A DNA stretch of 46,363 nucleotides, counting the filler, from Catajapyx aquilonaris (lineage: Eukaryota), in assembly GCA_000934665.2 (NCBI GenBank). It is 2 parts of 2 records of this genome, joined end to end, with 100 filler letters (N's around TTAATTAATTAA, not from the genome) between each part and the next. Parts side by side here need not be neighbours in the genome. Positions count along the whole stretch, not along the records: positions 1 to 23,146 come from JYFJ02005730.1; 1 more part is not named here. One strand, written 5' to 3'. Shown piece after piece: positions 1 to 46,041 of this stretch. The notes beneath the pieces are model-generated. The model was not told the DNA's origin. It was given only the letters and a program-made list of their open reading frames with translations, and made no database searches. The first letter of the stretch is position 1, and each line of letters starts with the position of its first letter. The translations under genes were made by a program, and so were the position numbers.

Positions 1-702
1 ACTCGGGCACTGCCTTGTCTGGCCATGGTCCCTGCTGGTGGCAAGGGGTCCACTACAATATTATATATAATAAGATTACGCTTCTGCTCACCCTTCACAC
101 GGATGTGGAGACTTGACACGTCCACTCCTTGAACCATGGCTTGATCGAACAGAACTTCCTGACATTTCTGGAGGAAGGAGGGTCGACTGTTGTTGATGTA
201 CTCCTCTAGGTCATGCGGGAAGCGTCTGTGGACGCTGCTGATGGCTTCGGCTATGGTAGCGACTAGGTGGAACAGACTAGCGGTCTCCAGCGACTCCGGT
301 TGGAGGTAAACAGGCATGGCTGCAACACAACAAAAGCCTCGACATTATTTCAAAATAATGTCGAGGCTTTTGTTGTGTTGCAGCCATGCCTGTTTACCTC
401 CAACCCGAGTCGCTGGAGACCGCTAGTCTGTTCCACCTAGTCGCTACCATAGCCGAAGCCATCAGGAGTGTCCACAGACGCTTCCCGCATGACCTAGAGG
501 AGTACATCAACAACAGTCGACCCTCCTTCCTCCAGAAATGTCAGGAAGTTCTGTTCGATCAAGCCATGGTTCAAGGAGTGGACGTGTCAAGTCTCCACAT
601 CCGCGTGAAGGGTGAGCAGAAGCGTAATCTTATTATATATAATATTGTAGTGGACCCCTTGCCACCAGCAGGGACCATGGCCAGACAAGGCAGTGCCCGA
701 GT
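1..702. repeat. Near-perfect long palindrome (350-bp arms, 2-nt loop at 351-352); left arm runs off the window
   Basis: 1-350 is the reverse complement of 353-702 with 4 mismatches found by manual comparison; centre GACATTATTT-CA-AAATAATGTC. Confidence 0.97.
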
Positions 703-727
703 TCCAGAACACGTCAGTTCTCTCTAA
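386..727 (+). CDS. Unrecognised ORF/exon in the palindrome right arm (mirror copy starts at 317 on the minus strand)
   Basis: 113-aa ORF preceded by an acceptor-like TTTTGTTGTGTTGCAG. Possible 39-nt in-frame intron at 612-650 (GTGAG...TTGTAG). All 4 arm differences fall at third codon positions. No homolog recognised. Confidence 0.4.
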   Translation: MPVYLQPESLETASLFHLVATIAEAIRSVHRRFPHDLEEYINNSRPSFLQKCQEVLFDQAMVQGVDVSSLHIRVKGEQKRNLIIYNIVVDPLPPAGTMARQGSARVPEHVSSL

Positions 728-1084
728 CATTTTATTCTAGACCGAACACTATTCTTGTTGCTACACAACAATAACACAATGTGGCCAACAGGACCACTAC
801 AATATAATTATAATTGGCTAGGTGTGTTTGTGGGGTGGGAGGCATGGGTTTGCTTGGGGAGGGGGGTGTGGGCTACCAAAGGAGTCTTACATGTGTCGTA
901 CTCTCACCAGTGATCATCCCAACTTGAATATCAACATTTGCACTGAGCAAGGTGGGGCGATTTGCATGTTGGGTGTACCCATCATAATGATGACATATAT
1001 GGAGGGGGTCTCGCTTAAGAGGCCCAATCTTCCTTAGTATTATACTAGCCAACAGGACTGATATGGCCACATGTAGTTCACATG

Positions 1085-1479
1085 TAGGGCTACAACATAC
1101 GTGAAAACCAGCGAAAAATAAAGGTGTATAATTTTAAAAATTAAATGTTTAAAATTTGCAATTTCAATCTTTTTAACGCAAAAATTTAAAATTTTAAAAT
1201 TAACCATAGAATACGATTATATCAACCTTTCTGATGAGTAAATTGATATCAAAAGCACATCTGTCTCACGATTAGTTGCGGGGAAACAGCCAAAAGAAAA
1301 ATGGCTCTCAAAGAAAAGGCTCAAAATTACCACGCCCCAAAAAACGGGTAAAAATCAAAATATTTCAAAACGCTTTGGTACAATGTTTTAGCAGCGCTAG
1401 GTCACCATAACCTGTAAATATCATTCAAATCCGCCACATCAAGGGTACAAAGGGGGCCCCACTGACATGGAATGACCCC
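1085..1479. mobile_element. Probable right end of a DNA transposon (terminus reads GGGTCATTCCATGTCAG on minus); left boundary approximate
   Basis: AT-rich subterminal-like sequence ending CTGACATGGAATGACCCC, similar to the terminus CTGAAATGGAACCACCC ending at 27211. Confidence 0.4.
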
Positions 1480-1613
1480 TATTAGAAACACATAACTTTG
1501 TCAAATATATTGCTCAATTTTCATGAGACCAGTTTCATTTTGTTAGCTGCTTTAGGCGTGTATTCGCTTTGCGAGGTGCTAGGGCTCGGCACCTCCCCGT
1601 GGGGCCCCACTTG

Positions 1614-1761
1614 TGCTGTGGAACTGACATCTCCATAAGTTCAGTGCCTCTTATGGCACAGCTATGCACTAACGCCTATAGAGCCGTATAGAGCTGTAGG
1701 CGTTAGTGCATAGTTGTGCCATAAGAGGCGCTGGACTTATGGAGATGCGAGTTCCACAGCA
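1614..1761 (+). repeat. 68-bp-stem hairpin (small foldback or hairpin-RNA candidate)
   Basis: 1614-1681 pairs with 1694-1761: 62 Watson-Crick pairs, 4 G:T pairs, 2 mismatches, 12-nt loop. Confidence 0.9.
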
Positions 1762-2286
1762 GGATTCCATTGCACATATATTAGCACCACTGACGGAAGA
1801 GATAACGGCACACCTTTTTCTATTGCCCTGGGATAGAAGTGTCCCTGGGCTGGTTAAAACACACATTTCCGTCCCCACAGCTAATGTCGTACAAGCACAC
1901 ATTGTTTGTTCCCCTCTGGACCCACTTAAAGCTGGTGGGAGGGACATGGGATTGAACCCAGGGCATACTCAGCTGCAGTGAAATGAGTGTGGGTCACTAA
2001 GGGGGTTCAAGGTCACATGGCGCGGGGCCACCCAGAAGCGCGGGGCTCCGGGCGGTCGCCCGGACTGCCCACCCCTAAGGCCGGCTCTGATTCAGAGGCA
2101 ACATTATGGAATAATTTGGATCCTCATGCTGTATAACAAGATGAGAAATGTGATGTGGAAGTTTGTTGTCAAGTTTCCTTCTCTTTATTACCTTTGGAAA
2201 TGTTCAAGGTATCCTACAACAAATTACCAGATAATCATATGCAAGGGAGATGGGAATTCATTTCTAATGGATTTTCTTGGATATAT

Positions 2287-2891
2287 GAAGGGCTTGGGAG
2301 AAAAACCTGATAACCTCCAGTGAAAAATGCAAGTCTCGGCCTGACTTTTTTCCATGGAAACAAATGAAGCACGGAAGGTGTCCTCTGGTAGGGAGTACCT
2401 TCATCAGTATTCGTGAATTTTCTCCCACCTCCAGAGAGAGTCAGTCGCTGGCAGTCAGCCTGTGAGTGACCGAGGGTACTCGGCGCCCATTGAATTTTCA
2501 TTTCCCGCGAAAATGACGGAACAACTTCACCCGGGTACGACCCACGACTCGTCACCAGTCATGACAGTGTTCAGGAAGTCAGGGTCAGCGTGTGAGGAGA
2601 CCAGAATGTCCTGCGAGACTTGCAGCTCCGTCGGCATGTATCTTTGGCACGAATTGAACGTCTCAGGAGTAAAATGTGTTAACCGGCATGCGGCAGTGGG
2701 CTCATAGGCTGACTGCTGTGACTAGTGCTCTCTGCAGGCGGGGAAATATTCAGGAATACTCATGAAGGTACTCCACATCTACCCACAGATGGACACCCCC
2801 TGTGCTTCATTTGTTTCCTCTGAAAAAAATCAGACTGAGAACTTGTTGCAATTATCACTTTCGGTTATCAGGTTTTTCTCCCAAGCCCTCC
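2287..2891. mobile_element. Non-autonomous DNA transposon (MITE) with ~190-bp degenerate TIRs
   Basis: AGGGCTTGGGAGAAAAACCTGATAACC ... GGTTATCAGGTTTTTCTCCCAAGCCCT; ATAT on both flanks; arms pair inward to about 2466/2701. Confidence 0.85.
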
Positions 2892-3075
2892 ATATCACCC
2901 CGAACTGCTTGACTACCCTTTAGAGTCGCAGCATATTATGTTGCCCAATGCAGTTTATCACTTGAATTAATTATCATACCTCTGTGCCTATGTGTAGGAC
3001 AGAGAACCTTCGATAATTCAGGTTTTCATTTTTGCCGATACTTACTGCCATGTTTAATTTAATCACTTGCTCCAG

Positions 3076-3418
3076 GATGCTGCAAATTCTGCCAGTCTTG
3101 GTTGTGCTTACCGTGCCAAGCATACTCTGGTGGGGCCTGATTCCTGCTCTTTCCATGAAGCGACCAAATCAGCACCTGAATTTAAACTTGTGTGTACACC
3201 CAGCAAAGATGCAGCTCAGGTTGGTTGGCTCTTAACATGAACATGAAGGGTTAATATCCTTCACCCAAGTTTAACATCACTGATATGTTACCAAAGTATG
3301 AGCATCGAATTCATGGCTTTCTTTTCTCAATTCATTTCAGATCTACAATGCAATGGTGGTAAACTATAGACGTTTGGAGGAATTGGTTGTGAACGATAAA
3401 GCCTGCCAAAGATTCTAA
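3076..3418 (+). CDS. XYLB: Xylulose kinase (FGGY carbohydrate kinase family), last two coding exons 3076-3219 and 3341-3418
   Basis: Spliced translation DAANSASLGCAYRAKHTLVGPDSCSFHEATKSAPEFKLVCTPSKDAAQ|IYNAMVVNYRRLEELVVNDKACQRF* matches the recalled eukaryotic xylulokinase C-terminus (ANSAxxGxAYRAxH...P..A..Y......Y..LE). Canonical AG/GT sites, phase 0. Earlier exons were not found in 1-3075. Not in the supplied ORF track. Confidence 0.88.
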
Positions 3419-3954
3419 TTGTTCCCATTGAGTGCTTTGTGAGGATGCAATAACACTATCGTATTGATCAGAAGATTGCTTCTGGTCATCCTGTTACCTG
3501 CTAGCATAAGACACCTGGAAGGAGGTGTACAGGGTGGTGGTACTTATCATTCCTGGGTGCTTTGTCTTGCCAATGTGCATTTTCACACTTTTTTTATGTT
3601 TCTGGGTCAATTTCCCATTGCCTACCTGTGTTTGCGTTGAGCTTTAGCTGGAGCTTTGATATGAGCTCAAAACTTGTAGCTCCTAACAAAGTTAAAATTG
3701 TGTTAAAATCCCATTCATATGAATGCATTGAAATAGCTTTTCTGTTCTAAAAAACCAGTCACATTCTTGCACATGAGGTCTGTCTTGTTGAGGACCTACT
3801 TAGTGCTGGCTGCAGTTGAAAGTGATATTGTTACACTGCAACAAATGTTTATTTTTATAATGGTTGTGTTGTTCCCACTTAAAAAAAAAAATACACATCA
3901 AAACCATCAATGTTGGTGTAACAGTGTTACTGATATCAATGTATTTCTGATTAG

Positions 3955-4662
3955 TAGAGTCCGAATTTTTAGGCACGAAAAAACTCCGAAATAGGAACAA
4001 AAAAACCTTCAAATGGGCACTTAAATAGGCACAAAAAGTTTACTTTTTTGGGCATATGTAGGATTATTGTTACAGAAAATAAAAAAAGCCAGAATAATTT
4101 TATAGGCCTAAAGTATAAATATAAGGTCACAAACCAGAGCAAAAACCAAATAACAACAATAAACTGACAGAAAATCACAAAACTTGGGCAAAAGACACAG
4201 AGTGCAAGCAAGTATCACTTGCTCTGGACTCTACCGCTTATAGCCAGTTTCCACGTGCACCAGACTTGCACAATATGTTGCCAAATATTTTTCCAATCAG
4301 AGGAAAATTTAGACAAATATTTGGCATAAATACGTGTCACAGAAACATGATGCGTATTACTTCTGAACGATTTTGGTCTTTTCAGGAGCAGAAATGAATA
4401 CTCCTCAAAAAACCAAACATGCCTCTGAAGGAATAGGCCCAAAAAGTCCCGAAATTACTGCAAAAAGTTCAAAAACTATCCCAAAAAAGGCCAAATAGGC
4501 ATGAAAAGGCAAAATAGTTCCCAAAACCACGAAATATGCCATTTTAGGTCCTATAAAACATACATTTTCCACATCCTGCACTTGTGAAACGGATAGATCT
4601 CTTCACAAAACGATCCCAACTGTTCAGAAACTTAATAGGCATTTGCCTAAAAATCCGGACTA
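3955..4662. mobile_element. hAT-like MITE with 8-bp target-site duplication
   Basis: TIR TAGAGTCCGAATTTTTAGGCA / TGCCTAAAAATCCGGACTA; CTGATTAG on both flanks (3947-3954, 4663-4670); many internal AATAGGC/AGGCA subterminal motifs. Confidence 0.8.
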
Positions 4663-5583
4663 CTGATTAGTATGATTTATTGATCTGTCAGAAAGTAAGA
4701 CATTCTTGGGTTATAAAATGTTGAGAGAGTTAACCATCCCCAGAAAACTACATTGTAACATGATGACTGACCTCTCTTCCTTTTGAAGATGCAAGGTGCT
4801 AATGAATCCTAGGCTGTCCATATATTGCCAGGGAGCTGACTGTTGCTGCAATTGTTACATTGTACATCTCCAAGATGAGTAGGTCAAGCAGATGCTGTTG
4901 GTTAGGAAAATCATGGCTATGTGGCTCGCCATGGAGCAGAAAGCTGACGCAGAACTGCAGGCTCGGTGAGCTAGGTATCTCATGTGCGGCTTTTTCTGAC
5001 ACAACATGGTTGGTTGCCATCTTTCCTCCTCCTGTCTACTTCCCTCCTGGGCTGGCCCCCTCACCCTATCAATGCCAACCGGCCTAGTATAGACTACCCG
5101 ATCCAAAAGGCCTTAGCCAGGCCCGTTACAGGACCAGATCAGGACTGTCCAATGTAAGTGTAGCGACTGCATGGGAGTAACCCGGTGTGTCTTGTGTAGG
5201 TGGCCTTAGCTAGGCCGATTTTTCGCGATTTTTAGTCCCATATAAACATAGTGATCGAGAGAATCAATTGAAAGTCCTACCATGGGAGGAAAATTCTCTG
5301 TTCAACTTGGGGATCAAACTCAGGACCTCAGGTGGAGGAAGCCTGTGCCACTAGCCATTTGCACCAATCATCCCTACCAATATGTTTCATCATGTTGCAG
5401 TGTTTTTTTTTTCCTGGGGGGGAAGGGGGTGTTCTAACAAGAATATGTTAATAAAGTGAACATATGAAAATTAACATAATGGTTGATGTATGATTTCCTA
5501 TGACTGGATATTGTCATCATATACAGTATACTCCTGAACCGGTTTCCTCCATACACTACGGTGTTCGAGGGGAAATAAAACCA

Positions 5584-5659
<76 letters not shown>

Positions 5660-5660
5660 T
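5584..5660. repeat. (TTA)n microsatellite
   Basis: About 25 tandem TTA units. Confidence 0.97.
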
Positions 5661-6057
5661 ACACCCTTGAGGCCTTCTGGCCTATGTAGGGGGGAGATTT
5701 TTTCCACCATTTTCTGACTCTCCAGTGCTGGGATAGAGGGGGGGACAGTGGTGCAAGTGCAATGTCTCATGGTGGAGGACGTGTGCAGTCCCTCAGAGGG
5801 CTAGGTTGACAAGACGACCCTCTAGATGCGGGTCAGAGACCTCCCACAAACGCCGCACCTCCTCCAGTATGGGACAGGGATAGGAAAGGCAGGAAGCGGC
5901 TGTGGCCTTCTAATTTAGGAAACAACTCTGGTATTCACCTGGGGTGACCGTGGGAAACCACAGAAAACCACGGTCAGAGTTGCCGGCCTGGGGATTCGAT
6001 CCCTGGACCTCCCGATTCGCAGCCGGATACCAAATCCCCTCGGCTACTGCTGCTTCG

Positions 6058-6059
<2 letters not shown>
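5661..6059 (-). mobile_element. tRNA-headed SINE, family A head with a longer body, embedded in TTA arrays
   Basis: 5871-6059 closely matches 13863-14048 and 43673-43860 (GGAAGCGGCTGTGGCC...CCGTGGGAAACCACAGAAAA...GACCTCCCGATT...CTGCTTCGGT); B-box-like motif on minus. Confidence 0.85.

Positions 6060-6114
<55 letters not shown>
6059..6114. repeat. (TTA)n microsatellite
   Basis: About 18 tandem units. Confidence 0.95.
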
Positions 6115-6115
<1 letters not shown>

Positions 6116-6451
6116 TCCCCAACTGCATAAACACACATAAATATAATATTTAACTCTTAGTTTTGGAAAGATGCTGAGGAGAAATGAATGGTAAGGCATC
6201 AAGAAAGTAAAATCCCTTAGTAACACACTGCTATCAAAGAATTAGCTAACTTACTCTCATATGGTATTACAAGCTTATAACTATCAAGGGCAGCCCTCTT
6301 GAGAAGAAAAGAGACAGCAAAATTGTGAATCAGGTGTATGAATTAATAAAAGCAAGGGAATCATTGCTTTGTGGGAGCAAAATATTGGGCTAGCACTTCA
6401 GATATTGGGAATAAATAACTTACTGGGTATATGCTTTTGCTCCTACATTTA

Positions 6452-6576
6452 GGGCCGGTTTCACCGAGCTTGGTATATGATAAAACCAGGTTTCTTTAGG
6501 AAAATCCATACAAATAGATAGGGATTTTGAGAAATACCCTGGTTTTATCACATACTGAGCTCGGTGAAACCGGCCC
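6452..6576. mobile_element. PIF/Harbinger-like MITE
   Basis: ~38-bp TIR GGGCCGGTTTCACCGAGCT... / ...AGCTCGGTGAAACCGGCCC; flanks TTA and ATA. Confidence 0.85.
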
Positions 6577-6643
6577 ATAGTAGTGTGGGGGCTGCATGCT
6601 GGTAGCTGACTTCATTTCTGACAGATTATTACCATATAATGTA

Positions 6644-6855
6644 CACCCGCGAGCATAAAGATGGAGACGGCCGGCCCTCACCTTCGGCAGGCTGCTCTGT
6701 CAATCTCAACAATTACGGTATCAAATATACTGTCATAAATACACGAACACATGCCTGAAGCAGCAAACTCGGTCCAAAAAATAGTTCATTAATTTGAGTC
6801 TGATAAAAAAAGGTCAAAAAAGGGCCTGCCGTCTCCATCTTTATGTTCGCGGGGG
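6644..6855. mobile_element. TA-flanked MITE (Tc1/mariner type)
   Basis: 35-bp TIR CACCCGCGAGCATAAAGATGGAGACGGCCGGCCCT / AGGGCCTGCCGTCTCCATCTTTATGTTCGCGGGGG; TA on both sides. Confidence 0.85.
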
Positions 6856-6868
6856 TACCGTATTACCT

Positions 6869-7580
6869 CACTTAAAGCAGCAGCATGCCAGTGTAGTCAA
6901 GGTTTTTAGAAATGCACGAGCTGGTGGCTATACCGGCATGCTGGTCTAAGCGAGGTATGCCAGTATAAGGTTAGGTTTTCAACAGCATCATCACGAGCTC
7001 TGTGAAAATTATTATTACTCAAATGAATGCATTACACCATGTTATATGGTGTGGATACAGCCCAGGACACTTATACTTCTTGACACATCCCATAAGATTG
7101 TTAAGGGAAGCATACCTATCAGGATCAAGATCAGGATATTTCGTATGATGGGTTCGAATTTTATTATCTGAGTAACGAGGCTTCTCAGACAAATTGATAC
7201 GACTACACAAAATGATCCTCTGAATGCCAACTAGATCTGCAACCAGCAAACTGTTGAGCAAAAGGAAGAGCTGAAGGAAATTGCCTTGATCCTTTGTAAT
7301 GTTTAGGGGGCATTCCCCTCTCAGAGCAGGCCGAATATGGGATTGGTCACACTCTATGCCCTGTGAAACAGCATATTCTCACAGCCCTGTCTGCCTGTAC
7401 TCGCACATTATTCACTGTAACATTATTTTAGTGCAGTACCAGATGCGCTAAAAAAAATCAAATCAAAAAAAGGATCAGAATTATGGAAAGCTAACCCAAT
7501 TGTCGCAGCATGCTGGCTACTCCCGTGTTATCCCGGCATGCTGGTTGACCTCATTTTATACCGGCATGCCACTTTAAGTG
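6869..7580. mobile_element. Degenerate TIR element with CACT termini
   Basis: CACTTAAAG..GCATGCC at left, GGCATGCCACTTTAAGTG at right; repeated CCGGCATGCTGG motifs near both ends; no clear TSD. Confidence 0.45.
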
Positions 7581-7916
7581 ATGTAATACAGTACTGTAGT
7601 GTCCTGGCTACCAGGTTGTTGTCTGTTGCCCTGGTTGCCAGGACACTGATGTTGTTGATGTTTGATAAATGTTAGTTCTTGTTCTACCGTCCTCCTGGAC
7701 GGATGTGATGTACAGTACCTATTGTCCTGAATAGAAGTCCACAGTGGTGGTTTTACCCTTTCCCCGGCGTGTTTCCGTGTGTTATTTTGGTGGTGTCTCT
7801 TACGCCTCATCGTGAGGCACTACAGTACTAATAATTTATTGATTCAAATATTGGTATGTAGCTTGATTCCTGGCATACGTAAGTGATTAGTAGATATTGC
7901 ATGGAATTCAATATAT

Positions 7917-8341
7917 CAGGGTGTATCTGAACTCAGTGCCCCGACGTATATGACTGCCTTCCTAGCCACCAGAGGATCGATTTAAGTATAGGAGTCATTA
8001 TGTCTGGGCAGCCTCATTACTGAGATACACTCTTTAGCGATTTTTGCCTAATCGCTCCTTCTGACTTTTAAATTGAATTTTCTGGTGTAACTAGCCAAAG
8101 AGGCCTTACCACCTGTGGGCAACAAACCAACAAAGTCCGGCCCCCAGACCTTCCAGAGCCTTCTGACTGGGGGAGGGTTCGATGGGTGGCCTAACCGACA
8201 GGATATTTTGTACTACATGTTTGCGGCCAATTATCTCCGTAATGCGGCGGCCAAACATAATGACTCCTATATTTAAATCGATCCTCTGGTGGCTAGGAAG
8301 GCAGTCATATACGTCGGGGCACTGAGTTCAGGTACACCCTG
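7917..8341. mobile_element. Tc1/mariner-type MITE (CAGGGTG ends, ~110-bp TIRs)
   Basis: CAGGGTGTATCTGAACTCAGTGCCCCGACGTATATGACTGCC... mirrored by ...GGCAGTCATATACGTCGGGGCACTGAGTTCAGGTACACCCTG followed by TA. Confidence 0.92.
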
Positions 8342-8598
8342 TATTATTATGCTTTGCTCTGCTACCAAGTATAAGTGCAACAATGTCCTTGCCCTCTGCA
8401 TTGGCCATACCAAGCTTTGGTATGGCCAATGCAGAGGGCATCATTCTAATTTTCATCATTTGGAAAATAATGAGCTTCTCCATAAAGGAGTTTGTAGGAA
8501 AGTTGATGGTCACCATGCAGAGGCATTCCTACCCTGATCTCAGGATATTGCATCATCTTCATATGACACCAAGAGCTAATAACAGTTATTAGCTCTTG

Positions 8599-8780
8599 AT
8601 GGCCAGTTTTGAGCATCGTGCTATCATCAAATATCTCATTTTGAAGAAGGTGAGCACTGTGGATATTTATAAGGACATGTAAAAGACATTGAGGGGTGGT
8701 TGTCCATCATACCCAATGGTTATAAGATTGATTGCACACTTCAACTGTCGGAAAGAGAGCCTGGAAGGTGACCCCTGCAA
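8599..8780 (+). pseudogene. Decayed mariner transposase N-terminal HTH fragment
   Basis: MASFEHRAIIKYLILKKVSTVDIYKDM*KTLRGGCPSYPMVIRLIAHFNCRKESLEGDP resembles the mariner N-terminus (RAVIKFL...PSY.TV..W...F..G..SLEDDP); contains an in-frame stop. Confidence 0.8.
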
Positions 8781-9271
8781 CTTATATGACAGGAAAACAT
8801 CTCTTCTGTGGAGACCATGGTAATGGATGACAAGGAAGAGGACCTAAAACTACCTTGCGTGTTCTTCATTTTATGGCTCAAAAAATTACGTGCTTTTCGA
8901 AGGTAAAATCAAGGGTTTAAAAAATATATAAAACCTCTTTCTATACTGGCATGCCACTGTTGTCTGTCCATGATAATACAGTAACAGAACTTGTGTGTAC
9001 ACATGTCTCCTGATGCAGATGTGAGCTAAATTATGAAACACAGCATGTTTTAGGAAGTTAAAAGAATTCAACATATCAGCATTATTTGCAAGTGTTTTAT
9101 TACACATATATTTTGCACATTTGTTTGCAAGATTTTTTTCTCTTAGGATTTTATTATACAATGCAAGAAAAGCCCGAGCTGTTGGGGACTCATGTCCCCA
9201 ACGCTATAGAAGTAAACCATGTACATCAGGAGAATTGCATGAGAGAAGCATTAGGAGCATATCACCACAGC

Positions 9272-10309
9272 CTAGAAGCAGTAGGGGTAGTTGGGGCAGG
9301 TGGATGGATTGACATCTGCGGGATATCCGCTGGCCCTGTATCCCACTGGCCCTTCCACACCAGTTCCACAGAATGGGTAGTTGGGGCAGGTCGATGGGTT
9401 GACTCCATCAGGGTAACGCTGGCCATAACCCAGATGCAAGCTGTTGCTGACGATGGGCAGAGGCACGTTGTAAGAGCAGTAGGGATAGTTGGGGCATTGG
9501 GCAGGGGACACACCAGCAGGGTATTGGGTCTGGGCAACAGCCACTGCCACCAAGGCAAAAAGGACCACCTGAAAAATGGAATAATTCAAGATTAGTACAT
9601 TGTGGCAAATGTAATCACTATAGCAAAATAATAAATGTGCATATCAGTGACAGGTCAGCAGCAATCAGACATGGCACATGCAATAAGTTTGAAAGTTTCC
9701 TTCTGAGGTATCACATTAGAATCAAGTTTTCATTATAATAGAAAGCTTTTAAATGTTTGTCCAGCATGAGTCATGTAAGTGTTGCACAGGCTACACTGCT
9801 GAATAAGATCTGTTTTGCTAATTATTCTTATTGCACATATTTACTGTACTACTGTATTTAAACATTCTGCTATTGCCTGCATCAAATTCTTATTACATAG
9901 TGTAACGAGAAGTTTTAGTAGCAGTTACACTCGATATTCAAAGTGCATTTTTAGCACTATCACCAAAGTCCTACAATAGGTCATGAATGGAAGTGGTGAT
10001 TGGTTAGAAAATACAATCCACAGTTTCAAAGTTTTAGATGTCCTATGCCTGCCTATATCCCTCACCATCAGTTTAAAAAATGCCTTATGTAGCAATATAC
10101 TTCATTATAAGTATGGTGGATTTTAACAACTGTGTACTACAAACGGAATGTAAATAGTGTGGACACTCATGCTGTTTATGTTATGTATCCTCGATACGAA
10201 AATACCATGATAATTATCCCAACACTGATATTTTCCCTCCAAATTAACTAGCAAGGTGGACCAAAATTGACTCTCAACAATGGAAGCAAATACTTACGAA
10301 TTTGTACAT
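9272..10309 (-). CDS. CPCFC: CPCFC-family cuticular protein, 102 aa, exons 10309-10298 and 9568-9272
   Basis: Exon 1 ATGTACAAATTC|GTAAGT (MYKF) joins TTTTTCAG|GTGGTC in phase 0, giving signal peptide MYKFVVLFALVAVAVA-Q and three YPxxVxPxxCPNYP[YF]C repeats (C-X5-C). Confidence 0.95.
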
Positions 10310-18953: not shown

Positions 18954-20196
18954 ACTAAAGGGTGCAGTTCCTACGTCAGAGTCTTGAGGTGACAATTCGT
19001 CCTGCATTTAATCATTTTTCTCTTAGTTCCTTTGTTTTTATCATGAGACATGAGCTGAGATTTTGCATGTTGATTTATAAGGAGTGATTAACTCCAGTGC
19101 GGAGTTTACTTTTTAAATATTTATGTTTATTCAGTTTCTATCTCACTCTAAATCTCACTGCCTGCTTAATTGGTCCAAGTTATAAATGGGAGTGAATTTG
19201 ATCTGTTGCCCCATAGGTGGGATGGGATAATCCTTGACTGTTAGTGTTAACTGACACCCATCATGAACTGAACTGCAGGAGCAATTCATTCACAAGTGAT
19301 TCATTGCCTCACAGTGGCAATCTGTGAAAAGCCTCACTTCTTTAATTTTTGTAAAATTGTAAATATAAGTAAGTGATTCCTTTACATAAGTACAACTATG
19401 CAAATACACCAAGTAATTTGGTTTTACCATGGCCCTCCAATGATTTTACCTGCTACATTCATGCAAGATGTATGCTGAGGGTGTTTTTTAAAATTCATGA
19501 TTGTGCTATATTCATTTTTTTAAACAAATCGAGGAGAAGTTGAAAACACCTTTTCACTTAATAATTCCGTAGTTTATGCTGCATCCAAGCCATTCGATGT
19601 TACTTTTTATAGTAGAATTCGGTTCAAAAAATCGCCTAATTGCTCGTAATGAAATTGAATGCTGTGTTATGTAAAATTCAGTAGGCTGACAGAATTGTAA
19701 AATTATTTCAGTAGAATTTGGTCCAAGGCAAATCAATTTTTACTGCTTAGCATCAATAGTAATGGGACAATTCCATTGGCTTAATTTCATTTTTTATTCT
19801 GTGACCAACAAATGCATTCTTAATTTTAATAACAGTTCTCGAAACAATGACAAAATAACAGAAACATATTGCAAGTTCCACTAGGTGGGATAATCCAGAA
19901 ACTGAGGAGCAGCTGTTTTGAATTGCCACCCTCCGTCCACTCCACATTTCAAAATCATCCTTTCCATTAGTGGTTGTATGGGGAGGGGGAATTGATTTCT
20001 GAGTCTGTGGTTCTTGAAGTGTTGTCTGAGGATTATCCAGGTAGACCATGAACTGTTTGAAAATTCCATTATTTCTTACACTGTTACTGCCAAATGAGAA
20101 GTTACTTATGAGAATAATGGCTGAAGTGGGCCACAGGAACTTATGCCCCACACTGGATGTGCTGCAGTCAAAGTTTGAGAACTACTGGCAAAAGTA

Positions 20197-21550
20197 CATG
20201 GGTTGTTTCATAAGTCATGGCACGTATTTTTTTATTCAAAAACGGTAACACATACAGAGATGACCTTTGCTGAGTTTTGAAGCTCCGGTGATTACAATTT
20301 GATCTGGCATATACAGGGTGATCCAGAAGTAAGTACCTATTTTTATTTCCTAATAACTTTCAAACGGGTACACCTACCGAAGTGAAACGGGGCACAAAAT
20401 GTGCGGGGATTCATAAGAATTTTTCTGGGGGACACTTCTTGCCGTTGTGGCAATGCTAGCCGTCGCAGCTTGACACTAATTGCCGTGGTGACGCTGCTAG
20501 CGGGGGAACCCCAGGGGAATCTCCAAAGAGCCAGCAATTTGGCATGAATACGCTTCACTGTCCTTGACTGCAGGGTGGCATTGACACCTCGTTCTCTGCG
20601 CCACCATCGCTGAACCTTGATGACACTGTCCCATACCTCCATACGGTTAGCGATGCACACACGGTCACTCACAGACAGTTGGTCCGACATTTTAGCCAAG
20701 CTTCCCCCGCTAGCAGCGTCACCACGGCAATTAGTGTCAAGCTGCGATGGCTAGCAGCGCCACAACGGCAAGAAGTGTCCCCCAGAAAAATTCTTATGAA
20801 TCCCCGCACATTTTGAGCCCTGTTTCACTTCGGTAGGTGTACCCGTTTGAAAGTTATTAGGAAATAAAAAGAGGTACCTACTTCTGGATCACCCTGTAGA
20901 TGTCACCCATATCGCAAGGACGCAGGGAAACAAAACGGGGATCATGACACCCCCCACCGCACCATCGCCCTAAGGCCTGACGCGCTTGGAACTGTTGGAC
21001 AATGCTTGCTGGACGCTTTGAGATGGACAGCACAGGAGCTTGCTTTCAAGTGTGGGACAAGTCAGAGCACTATGCTTAGGACTCTGAAAGACTGAAAGGT
21101 CTCAGGAAGTTGGCATCCTCACTGGTCCCTCGCCATCTCTTTGAGGTGCAAAAGAGCCACCATTTTGCCATTGCATGGAACTCGATCGCATTGAGAGTGA
21201 AGGTTTTTTCAAACGGTTTGTGGCGATGGATGACACATGGCTGTGGTCATAGTGCTCTGACTTGTCCCACACTCGAAAGCAAGCTCCAGTGTTGTCCATC
21301 ATCAAGTGTCCAGCATGCAGCGTCCAACAGCTCCAAGTGTGTCAAGCTCGGGCCTTCTTAGGGCGATGGTGCGGTGGGGGGGGTCACGATCCTATTTTGT
21401 TTCCCTGCCTCCCCTGTGATATGGGCGACATCTATGTGCCAGATCAAATTGTAATCGCCGGATCTTCAAAACTCAGCAAAGGTCATCTCTGTATGTGTTA
21501 CCAATTTTTGAATTAAAAAATACGCGCCATGACTTATTAAACAACCCACG
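20197..21550. mobile_element. Mariner-derived foldback MITE with ~295-bp arms; left arm interrupted by a nested MITE
   Basis: TA-CATGGGTTGTTTCATAAGTCATGGC ... GCCATGACTTATTAAACAACCCACG-TA. Internal relics: LLDALRWTAQELAFKCGTSQSTMLR, LVPRHL (WVPHEL-like) and FFKRFVAMDDTW (first catalytic D motif). Confidence 0.92.
20314..20896. mobile_element. Nested Tc1/mariner MITE (CAGGGTG ends, ~195-bp arms)
   Basis: TA-CAGGGTGATCCAGAAGT ... ACTTCTGGATCACCCTG-TA; removing it restores the host arm. The spacer on minus encodes MSDQLSVSDRVCIANRMEVWDSVIKVQRWWRRERG..., resembling a transposase N-terminal HTH. Confidence 0.93.
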
Positions 21551-22481
21551 TAATTCGGGTTGTACAGGATTTGTGGTTTTCAAGTGAGACAAAATAACTT
21601 CTAAAAGCTTTTGTGCAGGCAGCCATTGGGGATGGATTCGAACCTGTTTGAAGTTCACAATTGTCCAAGTAATCAATCACATTCACGTTATTAGTTTTCT
21701 GTTGTTTTATAAAAATGAATGAAGTGAGGTTTTTCTTGCCCTGCAACCTTAAGTGCATCATCCATGTTAAGTATAAGTGAGTTGCAGTCATGAATAGTGG
21801 CACCTATTTATGAGTGTGTCTTAGGTTAAGTTGAATCTTCACTGTCTTTTTGTTGAATTCAGAGTTGCATTTCAAATGTTCAAATAATTGTTTGCTGAAG
21901 GAAAAGACTGACTTTTTGTTTCATATGGGAATGGATGAAAGTTGTAGCAACAATGATAACCTGGCTTTTCCCAACCAAAGAGAGGGTGGAAAAAAAGAGT
22001 GCCTTTGCATAAATGCCATAATGAGCTCACTGCCTAACACAACAGAACCGTCCAGAACTTGCCACATGATTGTGCAGCTGAGTGCACAAATAAAATTCAG
22101 TGATGATAATAATCAAGGTAGAGGCAGTTGCAGATGTGCAGCTAGAGGAATTTTAGCATTTTAATTGGAGTTGTAGATCCAGCAGTTTTCACCACAAAGA
22201 TGAACCTTGAGCAGATGCTCTTACCAGGTTGCGAGACCTGCAGTGGGCATATAAAGTATTATTGTTTTGGATGGTTGCTCATAATAACTCGAGTACTTAA
22301 AAGTAATGGAGAAGAAAGAAATATGAGTATTATGCTGGACTTATTTCTACAAGTTGGGTCAAGCAGCCAGCTGCTTTGTACAGAAGATCAAAATTTCAGT
22401 GCGTATGCCATAACTGACAAGATTTGACACAGTGCTTCAACTGACATGAGTGTTACTTGCTGGGGCAATGAAAATGAAATA

Positions 22482-23146: not shown

Positions 23147-23246
23147 NNNNNNNNNNNNNNNNNNNNNNNNNNNNNNNNNNNNNNNNNNNNTTAATTAATT
23201 AANNNNNNNNNNNNNNNNNNNNNNNNNNNNNNNNNNNNNNNNNNNN
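23147..23246. other. Artificial scaffolding linker (44 N + TTAATTAATTAA + 44 N)
   Basis: Exactly 100 bp; the 12-mer places stop codons in all six frames. Confidence 0.93.
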
Positions 23247-24394
23247 TTAGCTCCGCGTGTAGTTGAGATATTCTAGGTGAAAATATGGCAAAAAGCGAAA
23301 ACATGCATATTTCAAAAATTATTTTCTCAAAAAAGCCATTTTTAATTTTAATTTTTATTTTTTATTTTAAAGGGAAAGGCATGGTGTAAAATTACCTGGT
23401 GTCAAAACCCCGTATATATTTTTTATACGTGAGATATAAATTTTTGTAAAGTCACAACTTTTGTAATTGTGCTACAATATGCACACTTAAAATAAATATT
23501 TTCTCGAAGAAGCCATTTTGAATATTTAATCGCTATTTTTTGCATAACAAAGTAGCATGAGTTCGATTAGAAAATTATATCAAAATTCTGTATATATTTG
23601 TATTCAGTGAGATCCTGACAAGAGGAAGGTCCCTACTATAGACTAATGAAATTATTCGCACCAAAAGTTAGAGGCCTAGTCCATATCAATTCAGGCAGGC
23701 AAAGAGAAAATCTTACCTTCATAGTCTCAGATGTTTTTGAATTTAACATATGTTAAAATTCAGGCAAAGGTAAGAGAGCCGTATTTTTTTGTTTTGTTCA
23801 AAAAAATTCCTGGCCCGAGATACAGGCCGCCAAAGATGGCGCCTCGGGCGCCATATTTCTCACTTGGGATTATCGGCAAAATTTTGAAACGCTCTATCTC
23901 TGGAACGGTTGAAGATACTTTGTTGCAGGTTTTTATATTTGAAAGATGATATTCTTCCGATTAAAATGACATCCTCCGTTTGGAAATGTGTGTCCAAGTT
24001 CTCTTGCTGTAGCCTTTTGAATTTCTTTTTCGAAAAATCAAAGATATTTTTTTTTTCAAAAAAGGCAATCCCAAAAATTTTGATTTTCTGACTGTTGATT
24101 AGTACCATAGAGTACTACATTCCCTGAAAAGGAGAACTTCCACTTTTGAGTTTAACAGGTTTTATAAGCAATTGAAAATTTTGCCATGTACATTAACCAA
24201 TTTCCGTTACACATACTCACATATTGGTCTCATGAAATCAAACTCTAGTCTTATTTGCCATGGCATTTTAATTCTTAATAAATATAAGTTACAGATACAG
24301 CTTTCAAAGCCTACTAAAGTTTCCAAAATTTAATCTTTATTAATTTAATTTTTATTTTTTATTTTTTATTTTTTATTTTATTTAAATTTAAATC

Positions 24395-24722
24395 GGGGGA
24401 GGCGGAGTGGTGCTGCGGTAACGTATGCGCCCACGGATGTTAAGGTCCCGGGTTCGATCCCAGCCCGGGGACACCCCCTTCATCTCGTGCAGAGTTCATT
24501 GGGTCACCTCTGGCTTCGTTTCGGGTGGTATTTCCTACAGACTAAACCACCCGGGGGAGTTCGCTAAAAATGGCCACGATTAAGACATTGCACTGCACCT
24601 TGCACACCCCCTCCTGTCATCCTGCCCGTGGGCCCGGGCGCTTCAATAATTAGGTTCCAAATATGTACATCGTACAAATAAAGGTCCGTGCTATATGCCG
24701 AGAAGGCCAAGCACTACCCGGA

Positions 24723-24810
<88 letters not shown>
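24395..24810 (+). mobile_element. tRNA-headed SINE, family C, with long (TTA)n tail
   Basis: A-box-like TGGTGCTGCGG, B-box GGTTCGATCCC, tail 24724-24810, 15-bp TSD ATTTAAATTTAAATC (24380-24394 / 24811-24825). Confidence 0.9.
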
Positions 24811-24813
<3 letters not shown>

Positions 24814-24899
24814 TAAATTTAAATCTTTTAAGACCGTGATCAGCGGAATCCTCACATTAAGTGCTGTTGGACCACAAAGGATGGGTTGCAACTTCACCA

Positions 24900-25068
24900 T
24901 CTGCCGTCAGATGTAAGAAGACCGTAACTCGAAAACCACTAAGGGCGAAAGTCGCATGCGCGCCCTGCACTAATCCCCTCTGAGCCAGGGTGGATTAGTG
25001 CACGGCATGCATGCGACTTTCGCCCTTACTAGTTTTTGAGTTACGGTCTTCTTACAACTGACGGCAGA
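24900..25068. mobile_element. Small palindromic MITE (~78-bp arms)
   Basis: TCTGCCGTCAGATGTAAGAAGACCGTAACTC ... GAGTTACGGTCTTCTTACAACTGACGGCAGA. Confidence 0.85.
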
Positions 25069-25967
25069 CCTGTTGTTCACAATCAATAGGATCATTACCA
25101 CTGATATTTTCACATGAGTAGGGTGTGGATCGGTGTGGATCCTGGCCCCAGCCATCTTGTATCCAATCCAAATTAACCACGGAAGCTTAAACATGAACAT
25201 TGTTTATAAAACCTGTTAAACTCAAAAGTGGAAGCTCTCCTTTTCAGGGAATGTAGTACGCTATGGTACTAATCAACAGTCAGAAAATCAAAATTTTTGG
25301 GACTGCCTTTTTTGATTTTTTTTTTTAATTTTTCGAAAAATAAATTCAAAAGGCTACAGCAAGAGAACTTGGACACATATTTCCAAACGGAGGATATCAT
25401 TTTAATCGGAAGAATAGCATCTTTCAAACAAAAAAAACCCGCAACAAAGTATCTTTAACCGTTCCAGAGATAGAGCGTTTCAAAATTTTGCGGATAATCC
25501 CAAGTGAGAAATATGGCGCCCGAGGCGTCATATTTGGCGGCCTGTATCTCGGGCCAGGAATTTTTTTGAACAAAACAAAAAAATACGGGTCTCTTACCTT
25601 TGCCTGAATTTTAACATATGTTAAATTCAAAAACATCTGAGACTATGAAGGTAACCCCCCTGCCTGAATTGATACGGACTAGGCCTAGACTATATCAGTT
25701 CACGCATATTACCGGTACCGTAATATGCGAACAACTGTATACCCAAGTCTATGAGATAGGATACGGAGTGTTGCAACTGACGAAATATAAATAAATTTCA
25801 CTATTGTTATAATTCATTATGAGTTTATAACTTTAGAAGTAACTGGGTGTTGAAAGACACTAACGAAAGCAAAAATACCACTTTTCATAAATTTGTATCA
25901 TCAAGAATCTATACCAGGTTTTTATATTATTTTATGACAGAACCGGTCTTTCCTTTATGAAATATAA

Positions 25968-26236
25968 TAATAATGGATACCCCGTGATAGGCCCCTTGGG
26001 CCTCTTAGGCACTTAGGGGATCATCTTTTGAATAACAGACTTTAATCATTTGCCTGAAATGTGATGGATTTTGATAGTGGGAGGAAACGGGAGAACCCCG
26101 AGAAAACCCACGCGAACACGGAGAGAACCCATCGAACCTCTATCCACATAAGTATTCTCCGTCCGACCCGGGGATCGAACTCGGGACCTTAGAGGTGGAA
26201 GGCTGCGGCGCTAACCGCTCGGCCACCGTGTCGCCC
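25968..26236 (-). mobile_element. tRNA-headed SINE, family B (V-domain-like core)
   Basis: Head GGGCGACACGGTGGCCGAGCGGTTAGCG..GTTCGATCCC on minus; 16-bp TSD CCTTTATGAAATATAA (25952-25967 / 26237-26252); second copy at 45588-45853. Confidence 0.92.
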
Positions 26237-26595
26237 CCTTTATGAAATATAAAAGAATATTGCATATTTAAAATGGCGTTTTCCATATATTAATTTTTGG
26301 AATGTGCATGTTGTTGCATAGAAACAAAAATCGCCCCTGTGAGAAAAATTCGTATCTCACTGAATACAAATATATACCGAATTTTGATATAATTTTCTAA
26401 TCGAACTCATGCTACTTTGTTATGCAAAAAATAGCGATTAAATATTCAAAATGGCTTCGAGAAAATATTTATTTTAAGTGTGCATATTGTAGCACAATTA
26501 CAAAAGTTGTGACTTTACAAAAATTTATATCTCACGTATAAAAAATATATACGGGGTTTTGACACCAGGTAATTTTATACCATGCCTTTCCCTTT

Positions 26596-26627
<32 letters not shown>

Positions 26628-27349
26628 GGCTTTTTTGAGAAAATAATTTTTGAAATATGCATGTTTTCGCTTTTTGCCATATTTTCACCTAGAATATCTC
26701 AACTACACGCGGAGCTAACGAAGGTTTTATTTCATGACCTGGAGGGGGTCACCGAGTATATCACAAAATATAATCAGCACAACCGTCAAGTTTACCATAA
26801 CGGCGTAATAAATTCCGAAATATGCGCATTTTGACCAAAATATGCAAGATTGGTGATTTTTTTGCAGGTGACTGTACCATTAAATGAGGTAAATTTATGC
26901 ATTAAATGACAGTGTGTTATTCCAAAAGCACGAGTTTAAAATTTCACGTTGGTTCTCTGAACAGTTCCCGAGATATACTCATTGAAAGCAATGGAAGAAG
27001 CGGGAAAAAGTGCGTCTTCGCGTGATTGTGATTTTGGTACCCCTTCAAAGAAATATTAATATATCGATAACTAAATTTAATCTGGTAAAACTGATTGCTC
27101 CATAAGAGTTCAATTGGATGTGGGTTTTACATATATTTTTTTCAAAAAAAATCGATGACTATGACCTGACACCTTTTTTCACTCACTGGCTGATCTGAAA
27201 TGGAACCACCCTGTTGTATAGTCAGTTGTATAGTCAGTTGTATAGTCAGATAGTCTACTCTCTACTGCACAGGTATGCCGATGAGCAGCTGTACCGGTAT
27301 ACTACTGTATATGATTGTATATTTAGTATACACTGAAATCTATACATTC

Positions 27350-28499: not shown

Positions 28500-40103
<11,604 letters not shown>

Positions 40104-40420
40104 GTGAGTGTGGAATGTGCATTTTTAACCAGATTGTTTCGTATTTGAGTGTTGTCCATAGGTTAGTAAGGGAAGGTTTGCAAAAATTATCATGACAAGA
40201 GTGTTCAGGGATAAATGTCATTGTATGATGTAATCAGGGGTAGTTTTAAATTATGAGTTCTGGCGAAAAAGAAATTGAATGGCATTCCTGACATGTAAGG
40301 GGATTTTCATGCGTGCATGAGATAGTGCCAATATATGCAAATAATATTTACAATCCATGTGACATAACTTGATAACCTCACTTCCAGAGTTGTAGTTGCT
40401 GGAGTGTAATTTAATAATTA

Positions 40421-41534
40421 CCCTATGCAACACGATATTTGTCCTTGGAAATTCATCTTCATATTCATGTTCCTTAGGTCACAAGTAACTCTTAATGGGC
40501 ATTCATTTTGTCTTTGATTAGTTTTTGACCTCAGGGCAGTAAAAAAACCAAAGTCCTCAAATATAGCAGTTTTTTCCCAATATAGCTGAATGTTGCTAAA
40601 CCATCTCGGATTTTTCTGAAAATAATCACAGCTGTACACACCTATGCCGTAACACTGCATATCAAGTGTGAGCCAAATTGCGAAATACCGTGGGGAGGGA
40701 AAAAATCGCGAAATTTTGAAAATGGGCCCTTTCTTGTATAATCTAATTTTGGTTATTGGAAATGGTCAAAACCCAATCAACATATACATCAAATGAAAGA
40801 GAAACGCGAGTAGAATGTGTCTCTTGAATTAGTTTTTTTGTTAAATGCACTCAGAAAAAACGTGTGGCATTTCATCAGTCACATGTCCAAGAATTTGGCT
40901 TCATTAAAATTAATGGTAATCTGGCAAACATCTATTATTTTCGCGCGAGCCATGCATGACCCATGATTGAAACTGAACATATTGAATCTTGTATGGGTCA
41001 CAACTCATGTCACCAAATATGGCTGTGCTTATGCAAATACATCACTAATTTTTTTGGGTCTAAACACTTGGACATGTTTTTCTGAGGGCATTTTACAAAA
41101 AACAAATTCCATAGGCTCATTCTACTCGCGTTTCTCTTCCATTTGATGTATATGTTGATTGGGTTTTGACCACCTCCAATAACGAAAAAAGATTATCCAA
41201 GAAAGGCCCCATTTTCAAAATTTCGCGACTTCTTCCCTCCCCACGGTACGGTATTTCGCAATTTGGCTCAAGCTTGTTATGCTATGTTACCACATAGGTG
41301 TGTACAGCTGTGATTATTTTCAGAAGAATCCGAGATGGTTTAGCAACATTTAAGCCCACTTGATTGGGAAAAAACTGCTATATTTGAGGATGTTGGTTTT
41401 ATGACTGCCCCGAGGTCAAAAACAAATCCAAGATCAAATGAATGCCCATTATGAGTTACTTGTGACCTAAGGAACACGAATATGACGATGAATTTCCATG
41501 GCCAAAAAAAAAAGTCAAATTTTGTTGAATAGTG
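40421..41534. mobile_element. Foldback MITE with ~450-bp arms in G-alpha-q intron 3; possibly piggyBac-like ends
   Basis: 40443-~40892 mirrors ~41067-41500 (e.g. GTTCCTTAGGTCACAAGTAACTC / GAGTTACTTGTGACCTAAGGAAC); ends ATTA-CCCTATGCAACA / TGTTGAATAGTG-TTAG. Confidence 0.9.
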
Positions 41535-41545
41535 TTAGTAATATA

Positions 41546-41709
41546 CTGTGTGACTCTAAAGTCAGGATACATGGGTATTTGGATTGAATTGTTGGTTTCC
41601 AGTTGTGCCAACTAGCAGATTGTTGACACTTAGAAAGGTTGAGTTGGCACAACTGGAAACCAACAATGCAATTCAATTACCTATGTATCCTGACTTTAGG
41701 GTCACCCTG
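41546..41709. mobile_element. Tc1/mariner-type MITE (~65-bp arms)
   Basis: TA-CTGTGTGACTCTAAAGTCAGGATACAT ... ATGTATCCTGACTTTAGGGTCACCCTG-TA. Confidence 0.88.
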
Positions 41710-42625
41710 TATAATAATATGGTGATGCATACAATACACCATTCATGGTTCACAATTCGATTTTCTGCTAGTTTCCTTTATTTTTAAGATAAAGTTGCCC
41801 AATTAAAATTTTTTAAGGACTTTCACGACATGTTCAGCATAAACTATGAGAGTCAGTGGGGCTCGTAAGGCTTGTCTTGTTCCTGATGCTTAGATTCATT
41901 ACGTGTGAGGTATTATTGCTCCATTTTCTTATTTTTGTTTTTATTTATTTTCATCTTTTGTCTAAGAAGAGGTGCTAAATGATCATAGCATGTAACCTTA
42001 TGTGAAAAAATTTACACATAGTAACCTGCATTTAGAGTTGGTCAAGTTTTAAAAGTCAGAAAATGAAGGAACAATTGGTTGACCTTTTGGTACATAACCA
42101 TTTTTACGCTGAGTTCGTGTTACTCAAAAGGGTTTAGGCCAGGTAAAATTAATTTAATGTTGTGGTAGCAATTTGTGAAGATATTAATTTTTCAGGTCCA
42201 CTTTGCAGATAATAATCATTGTCCATCATTACCTTCAAGAAATGGTGACAACCATTTTTTATTTTATTAATATGCTTGTTATAGTAGGGGAACTATTTTC
42301 TCCAGCAGGTTTTTATAATTGACATTGTGATAGATGACCATATGGTCTCTCATACAGTTACTTATGGCTGTGGTTGTAGTCCGTCCAACAAGGCATGGGT
42401 GGCAGACAACATCTGAATTCCAGCTAGCATCAACAAAAGCTGCACACAATTCCCGACAAGCCTCCTAGTCTCCCCCCCCCCCTCTCCCTACTTCCCCCCC
42501 AACGACCTTGACACCTATTGGCCTTTTCCTGGCGAACACCACAACTCACCCAACTCCATGGAGCAGGTGGAGCTGGTGTCACAGAATGTGGTGAAATCCC
42601 TTCTCTCAGTGCTCAAACCATCGCA

Positions 42626-42805
42626 TGGTATAACAGTTGAATCCGGGTATAACAGTTGAATCCGGATATAACAGCCTCGGCTATAACAGACTTTCGGTTA
42701 TAACAGACTCGACAGGCCAGTCCTGCCATACTTCCACAAGGCCCTGTGTAGTCTTACTCCTGATATTCACTCCTAACTTCACCTCATCTCGGCTATAACA
42801 GACCA
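42626..42805 (+). repeat. Repeated CGG.TATAACAG motifs (pogo/Tigger-like end relic)
   Basis: Six TATAACAG copies, including a tandem 20-mer TATAACAGTTGAATCCGG(G/A). Confidence 0.55.
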
Positions 42806-43203
42806 TTTTTTCCAGTGACTGCAATGCTGCGTTTATATGTGAGCAATTTGATCAGTACTGAGCGATGAAACCAATTGTTTGGGTGAAAGTAACAATTGTG
42901 TTTACTGGCAGTCGTTCGATTCGGCCAACAAAGCAAATAACAAAGGAACATAGCAGAATTGGCCCGTTCCTGCCTCTGCACCACTAGTATGTTTTCCGTC
43001 AGAGGGCAGTACGATAGCGTATAATTAACATGATCTTTGATCGATCATAGCTCTCAATCGAATACGTATTTCTTCAGACAAAAAACAACGAAATATATTT
43101 TAAAATGGGGACGATTTTTTACACGGGTTTTCAAAATGTAGGCTAGGAGGGTTTCCACCGAGTCCAAACATGGTTGTGAGATCATTTATTTTTATAAAAC
43201 ATT

Positions 43204-43280
43204 GGGGAGGTGGAATGGTGCTGCGGTAACGTAAGCACCCACAGATGTAAGTGTCCCGGGTTCAATACCAAGCCCGGGCA
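43204..43280 (+). mobile_element. Family C SINE head (body differs from the 24395 copy)
   Basis: GGGGAGGTGGAATGGTGCTGCGGTAACGTAAGCACCCACAGATGT..CCCGGGTTCAATACCAAGCCCGGG matches 24396-24469. Confidence 0.75.
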
Positions 43281-43545
43281 TTCCCGGTTGTGTTCTGGTT
43301 TTGTGCCTTTTAGAAGAAGGTAGTGATCTCCACTGCAGTATTCCGCACCTCCTATTCCTACTAGTTTCAAGCAGAACCGTATGAGGGGAGCAATTAACTC
43401 TGGCCTTGTTATACAACATTAACTAGTATTATGGATTCAAACAGAGAATGGTACTGATGATACAAACCTTTAATTGTTAATAAAATTTAATTAACAGTCG
43501 TTGTTGCTCATTGTGATGTCAGTAATGTTGTTTTGTTGAAGAAAT

Positions 43546-43550
<5 letters not shown>

Positions 43551-43601
<51 letters not shown>

Positions 43602-45853: not shown

Positions 45854-46041
45854 AATAACAGATGACAGTATCATAAAGCCATACAGCATTATTACCTACA
45901 CAAAGGGCAACTCCATCCCTCATGTTGCCCCATCACTCAAATATGCCTGTATCAGCTATTATCAGCTATTATTATTAGCCTTAATCATAGCCTTCTGGAT
46001 CCGGATCCAAAAGTCTTACACTGTATGTTCATTGACATAAT

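Follow-up and report, generated by a model that had tools for sequence, protein, structure and literature searches.

The window, by which we mean the whole 46,363-nt stretch of Catajapyx aquilonaris DNA analysed here, is a scaffolded sequence containing N runs, and its first 702 nucleotides form a near-perfect palindrome (Table 1). A repeat search of the window found two inverted arms of 350 nt each, 99% complementary and separated by 2 nt, while a base-by-base comparison of the arms returned exactly four mismatches, at left/right positions 99/604, 234/469, 237/466 and 297/406, corresponding to a divergence of 1.1%. Both parts of the original description, namely 350-bp arms around a 2-nt loop and four arm differences that all fall at third codon positions, three of them silent, were thereby reproduced. 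The outward-pointing ATGs at 386 (+) and 317 (−), the acceptor-like tract and the 39-mer at 612–650 are likewise present as claimed, as read from the sequence.

Inverted repeats are abundant in this DNA: 28 pairs of at least 40 nt lie within 3 kb of each other in the window. The inverted repeat at 1–702 is far beyond chance and is the longest among the 25 of these pairs that were listed. The left arm opens on the very first base of the window, so the figure of 350 nt reflects the window edge and not the true extent of the palindrome. With 4 mismatches in 350 nt, the arms lack the identity expected of copies from one molecule. Folding of 1–702 as RNA gave an essentially perfect structure with a minimum free energy of −742.8 kcal/mol, and an inverted repeat of this length could form an extended RNA duplex.

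Table 1. Features in and beside the palindrome at the start of the window
Feature	Position	Strand	Remarks
Left arm, inverted copy	1..350	−	Truncated by window start; carries the 4 alleles differing from the right arm; contains the ORF copy 317–3
ORF copy in left arm, 105 aa	317–3	−	Open-ended at window start; sequence reading
Palindrome centre (CA)	351..352	.	2 nt between arms; resemblance to the abundant family copy stops here
Right arm	353..702	+	Agrees with the family's majority sequence
Pyrimidine-rich acceptor-like tract TTTTGTTGTGTTGCAG, ending in AG	368..383	+	Mirror copy at 320–335 on the minus strand; sequence reading
Exon-like stretch, 228 nt	384..611	+	From AG at 382–383 to GTGAG at 612–616; contains all 4 arm differences; putative exon
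Orphan ORF, 113 aa	386..727	+	Stop-to-stop frame 359–727; sequence reading; relatives not found
39-mer taken as mini-intron	612..650	+	Last bases at the junction with a more abundant repeat
More abundant repeat module	646..808	+	23-nt inverted repeat near its ends, 639–661 / 786–808, 83% complementary
High-copy repeat flank	703..1500	+	Assigned from word depths; window alleles at 1282, 1334 and 1416 missing from nearly all run contigs

The open reading frame and its coding-like features

The peptides encoded by 386–727 and 317–3 differ at residue 27 alone (R/S). That all four arm differences lie at codon position 3, with three silent, is a pattern picked post hoc from a small sample (n = 4, perhaps 3 events), and its naive probability of 1/81 is to be read with this selection after the fact in mind. 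Two of the sites, 466 and 469, are only 3 nt apart and change AGG AGT into AGC AGC; if they arose in a single event, as their spacing suggests, the probability becomes about 1/27. The GC contents at codon positions 1, 2 and 3 (0.63, 0.37 and 0.58) are coding-like, and on these sequence features the stretch 384–611 may be a candidate exon, present or recent. The open frame of the arm is only moderately unusual: when the arm was shuffled 5000 times with its dinucleotides preserved, 139 of the shuffles reached its 114 open codons, as did 5 of the other 121 tiles of 350 nt in the window. The window contains 22 stop-to-stop frames of at least 120 aa.

No relative of the ORF emerged from the libraries searched. 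A Pfam profile search with the ORF peptide returned no family at E up to 10, and HMMER returned no hit at E up to 0.001 among 1,835,955,588 representative proteins. The word-indexed protein search proposed one candidate of similar length and 89 of greater length, none of which scored, and a search of a protein atlas gave no usable match. A single-sequence AlphaFold2 model of the ORF consisted of three helices and a beta hairpin at low confidence (pLDDT 62.1), and Foldseek found no match to this model at E up to 0.001. Among viral contigs, five pattern matches to the ORF were seen and none was confirmed.

Two sets of candidates were set aside. The only sequence matches in the PDB were three engineered protein A chains with E values of 0.0065 to 0.64, the best over 33 residues, and they were taken as chance. 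From 323 pattern matches in metagenomes, one locus (L001) alone passed tblastn, and it was rejected as a chance match: it covers only query residues 7–40 (34 residues), on a seeded 8-residue pattern, and it sits in a 308-aa frame of a prokaryote-like contig with long frames packed on both strands.

The expectation that the arms hold a recognisable gene was therefore not borne out in Pfam, the PDB, the protein atlas, the fold search or the representative proteins. The broader proposal, that the arms derive from a selected, intron-containing gene, was upheld in part: the coding-like GC, the third-position differences and the exon-like 384–611 speak for it, whereas the failure to find relatives and the doubtful intron status of the 39-mer (see below) speak against it.

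The arms belong to a high-copy repeat family

Parts of 1–1500 are contained in four runs of one sample (S1, 2014) and in a further, small run from a different study. We aligned to this interval the Logan contigs, as distinct from raw reads, of three S1 runs (X1, X2 and X3) and of the run from the other study (X5). Contigs fitting both arms were assigned to the right arm, and no X1–X3 contig was placed on 101–300. X5 provided only seven contigs, lying on 10–54 and parts of 823–1479 and none on the ORF part, a data set too small to weigh.

Word depth over 350–1500 was 200 to about 9000 (variant contigs, 8–40). The interval is thus a mosaic of high-copy dispersed repeats and not a gene pair, and the proposed fusion of two gene copies as a hairpin gives way, at word depths of 200–9000 over 350–1500, to a high-copy dispersed repeat. 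A second copy of 353–1500, sought within the window, was not found. The right arm represents the family majority: contigs with no other letter cover 350–479, 450–606, 450–665 and 577–665, and no alternative letter reaches 10% anywhere in 350–702 among the X1–X3 contigs. The left-arm alleles each remain below 10% among the family contigs. Contigs of depth 180–2000 match the arm at 99–100%, which shows that homologous copies of the arm sequence exist elsewhere, and in large number. In the flank to the right, at 1282, 1334 and 1416, all or nearly all X1–X3 contigs differ from the window, the window letters being private alleles or assembly errors in the repeat.

The sequence to the left of base 350 distinguishes the abundant family copy from the palindrome. 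In all three S1 runs, the contig carrying 350–430 or 350–479 extends leftward by 241–255 nt or more, with one sequence that is common to X1, X2 and X3 and unlike the left arm. The depth of the contig with this normal junction is 180 in X1 and 207 in X2 (135–207 across the runs), and the X1 record is 778 nt long, of which 130 nt lie on the window. Since the family contigs carry a different sequence to the left of 350, the repeat in its abundant form is not palindromic, and the homology breaks exactly at the centre. The loose end before 350, 30 letters in length, opens with GTGAG, some 64 nt upstream of the acceptor-like AG (382–383); judging from these 30 letters, the break point may therefore lie in a short intron of the repeat unit.

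A second boundary crosses the right arm at the 39-mer. Word depth climbs from about 700–2100 (bins 551–650) to about 2400–4600 (bins 651–750), and the jump at about 646 is mirrored at 57. Loose ends before 646 occur in X1 and X3, with a mirror-image junction at 67/636, and X5 contains only 10–54, the mirror of 649–693, within unrelated flanks. The depth jump and the loose ends indicate that the end of the 39-nt 'intron' is the start of a more abundant module. Contigs bridging 646 have a depth of about 700 in X3 and about 1250–1290 in X1 and X2, and most family copies thus join the two parts as the window does. A length of 39 nt is shorter than that of usual arthropod introns. The intron-like 39-mer is accordingly present at 612–650 as first described, but its status as an intron is doubtful, since its 3' end coincides with the repeat boundary at 646.

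Sequence across the turn

The centre exactly as assembled was present in the contigs of none of the three runs (X1, X2 and X3). Base 349 is uncovered by contigs in X1 and X3, where a single contig that reaches base 350 alone accounts for the bin means (3.61 and 2.7). In X2, a single contig with a depth of 7.8 covers base 349 and carries AGG inserted behind it. Its span follows from the bin mean, as (8.98 × 50 − 207.2)/7.8 gives 31 covered positions, 320–350, which suggests a k = 31 unitig running round a hairpin turn whose loop is a little longer and which departs from the assembled turn by 3 nt. As compared to the normal junction, the folded form amounts to at most about 4% of the depth (7.8 versus 207). 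Of the three runs, all from the same sample, a single one showed this variant turn, even though the depth of the normal junction is similar in each. Since contigs lose rare variants, the missing centre proves little.

Surroundings of the palindrome

The hairpin had been placed within an intron of a xylulose kinase gene. None of 532 stop-free frames of the window (150 + 150 + 148 + 84) matched the FGGY/xylulose kinase family; the scan comprised frames of at least 40 aa starting up to 10705, of at least 51 aa beyond that point and of 27–39 aa in 700–9000, so that exons below these lengths, or to the left of base 1, would escape it. With no FGGY match, this placement is unsupported.

At 23147–23246, the 100-nt gap consists of 44 N, TTAATTAATTAA and a further 44 N. 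The spacer has stops in six frames and looks like a scaffolding or linker convention rather than biology. The largest inverted repeat other than that at 1–702 is a diverged palindrome at 23247–26718, whose left arm begins at the first base after this gap. Its outer arms (23247–23613 / 26354–26718) are 97.8% alike, while its inner arms (23672–24172 / 25199–25686) are 91.8% alike around a shifted axis, and an 83-nt core of 89% encloses a 3-nt centre at 24983–24985. As it is diverged and carries indels, this palindrome is surely genomic. It demonstrates that palindromes with minute centres arise in this genome and are places where the assembly is prone to break.

Other long inverted repeats lie at 20192–21555, 40438–41506, 44142–44576 and 7910–8348, with arms of 83–204 nt that are 86–96% complementary, in a window that is unusually rich in such repeats. 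At 2274–2904, an imperfect inverted repeat of three blocks (82–85% complementary) with a core of about 290 nt has a MITE- or foldback-like look, and a hairpin at 1614–1761 has 68-nt arms, 91% complementary, around a 12-nt loop. The Rfam miRNA-precursor models that matched the centre of the palindrome and the 1614–1761 hairpin scored 24–49 bits against cut-offs of 57–107; these sub-threshold scores were taken as generic hairpin matches.

At the Rfam gathering score, the only matches in the window were two tRNAs, both far from the palindrome. These tRNA-like genes, found on the plus strand by ARAGORN at 32010–32087 (Ile-TAT) and 39444–39518 (Ser-GGA), score 50.8 and 48.5 bits in Rfam; they lie within a stretch at 32–40 kb that has a strong GC skew (0.19–0.31) and is interrupted by several N runs, and both may be repeats derived from tRNAs. 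A minus-strand frame at 9275–9643 contains three CPCFC cuticle-protein motifs (PF17223, E 8.4e-22, 77 bits against a cut-off of 25), an arthropod marker. Within 28638–46362, 2 of 148 frames match the G-protein alpha subunit family (PF00503), with a best E of 9.7e-18.

Origin of the palindrome

The locus is a fold-back palindrome of an ordinary, repeat-derived kind, or else an artefact of that form, with an orphan exon-like ORF. Its arms are repeat DNA, and the family copy has a different sequence upstream. Because the family copy continues differently beyond the centre, the hairpin is better explained by a break and fold-back within one repeat unit than by two fused gene copies. Our best explanation, to which we give about an even chance, is a young fold-back (head-to-head) inverted duplication, formed in the genome, of an internal piece of this high-copy dispersed repeat.

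The repeat unit would normally continue upstream of base 350. One copy may have broken within the intron-like stretch at about 350–352, and its 3' end could then have folded onto the strand to which it belongs, virtually without a loop and with scant homology or none, before being extended. The product would carry the same 350 nt or more outward in both directions, with its centre marking the break point. We infer both the snap-back and its occurrence in the genome rather than in the tube. Fold-back copying at DNA breaks is described as an established route to palindromes in the accessible parts of two reports (PMC11724301, PMC3834830). Since the copied piece carries the exon-like ORF of the repeat family, two 'genes' seem to point apart. 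The arm divergence of 1.1% marks the structure as young, and its end at the window start is put down to an assembly, or a window, that runs out within repeats. By default, such a fold-back palindrome would be inert.

The four differences between the arms, which a single-molecule chimera would not show, favour a genomic fold-back, as do the probable turn in X2 and the other small-loop palindromes of the window. Three points count against it: the assembled centre occurs in no X1–X3 contig and the sole bridging contig differs from it by 3 nt; the palindrome touches the window start, possibly a scaffold end; and differences at third positions in four of four cases are unexpected under neutral decay (1/81, or about 1/27).

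The same points bear on an alternative that we hold to be possible although somewhat unlikely, namely that a snap-back library chimera, or an assembler path turning within the collapsed high-copy repeat, became attached to the scaffold end. The four 'differences' would then be minor variants of other family copies drawn into one arm, and third-position differences are what the family polymorphism of a coding repeat would be expected to supply. A start at window base 1 and a position wholly within high-copy repeat DNA fit this account. So does the record of the turn: with the assembled centre absent from the contigs of all three runs, the variant found in one of them, at a depth of 7.8 versus 135–207, is consistent with duplicates of one chimeric molecule. 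The window alleles missing from the contigs at 1282, 1334 and 1416 further imply that the assembly is not faithful to these runs. The chemistry of a snap-back can also operate in the tube, and palindromic library artefacts are documented, as the accessible part of one report indicates (PMC3946424). On the other hand, each of the four left-arm alleles is below 10%, and four rare alleles in a row would be unusual for bubble popping. Diverged palindromes with 3-nt centres inside the scaffold argue that the genome really makes such structures, and the absence of the centre weighs little where contigs drop rare variants. A separate assembly effect concerns exact palindromes in de Bruijn graphs, to judge from the accessible part of a preprint on palindromic unitigs (10.1101/2022.01.20.477068); on that description, a turn whose centre is non-palindromic is left unexplained by it.

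In Drosophila, FB and Galileo are palindromic transposons of the foldback type. It is improbable that the hairpin is a copy of a comparable foldback- or MITE-like family, with long arms built from this repeat and the hairpin as its normal multi-copy form. The X2 turn (depth 7.8), which differs by 3 nt from the assembled one, together with the unrecovered private alleles of the window, could mean that more than one fold-back copy exists. However, the folded form reaches at most about 4% of the normal-junction depth (7.8 versus 207), no second copy lies within the window, and the arm is truncated by the window start, which places the outer ends and any target-site duplications out of view.

If the fold-back is real, it might also be transcribed, its duplex of more than 350 bp being diced to endo-siRNAs that silence the parent family, in the manner of a Drosophila hpRNA. 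By analogy, one could then picture a lineage-specific repeat family with an exon, policed by endo-siRNAs from a very young fold-back of its own, a newborn hpRNA at about 1% divergence outside Drosophila; we regard the siRNA reading as quite improbable, and grade this extended picture just as low. The essentially perfect fold (−742.8 kcal/mol for 1–702) and the many potential target copies (contigs of depth 180–2000 at 99–100%) agree with it. In the accessible part of a study of Drosophila hpRNAs (PMC10317233), the arms may come from genes or transposons, hp-ODox2 from BS2/Jockey being an example, and the features named are a primary transcript, Dicer-2-dependent small RNAs of 21–22 nt and a defined unit. 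Here, no host gene was found around the hairpin (none of 532 frames matched FGGY), a hairpin of such length hardly stands out among the many similar palindromes of the window (28 inverted pairs), and the hairpin might not exist in the genome in the first place.

Least probable is a head-to-head meeting of two independent copies of a protein-coding gene that is under selection and present in few copies: the third-position differences (4/4, with 3 silent), the coding-like positional GC and a moderately unusual open frame would suit it, but both copies end at the same base within 2–3 nt, inside an intron-like stretch, the depths run to hundreds and thousands, and no homologue was found in the libraries searched.

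On present evidence, the palindrome adds little biology. If real, the fold-back would be a further example of how readily this arthropod genome makes and tolerates near-perfect, almost loopless palindromes, which are raw material for hairpin RNAs. It also counsels caution, in that an edge-touching hairpin in a high-copy repeat with an orphan ORF should not be equated with a gene pair or an siRNA locus ahead of reads across the turn and small-RNA data.

Comparison with known palindromes

One close likeness is to the fold-back inversions of yeast and tumours. As far as the accessible parts of the reports go (PMC11724301, PMC3834830), these share with the present structure head-to-head copies, an almost absent spacer and a junction internal to normal sequence; in contrast, the substrate here is a single dispersed-repeat copy from the germ-line assembly of an arthropod, and the fold-back event is putative. 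Library palindromes (Star et al. 2014, PMC3946424) also resemble it in their reverse-complementary join, short interruption and, possibly, position at the edge of an assembled piece. Those treated in the accessible part of that report, however, are short structures at the ends of reads from degraded DNA, whereas the arms here are at least 350 nt long and non-identical.

As in Foldback- and MITE-like transposons, the arms make up nearly the whole structure, and the window is rich in such repeats; the abundant form of this repeat is nevertheless not palindromic, and the ends of an element are out of view here. Finally, with Drosophila hpRNAs such as hp-ODox2, as presented in the accessible part of the source (PMC10317233), the palindrome shares the long, near-perfect inverted repeat and the match of its arms to copies elsewhere in the genome, while it differs from them in having a 2-nt spacer in place of a loop.
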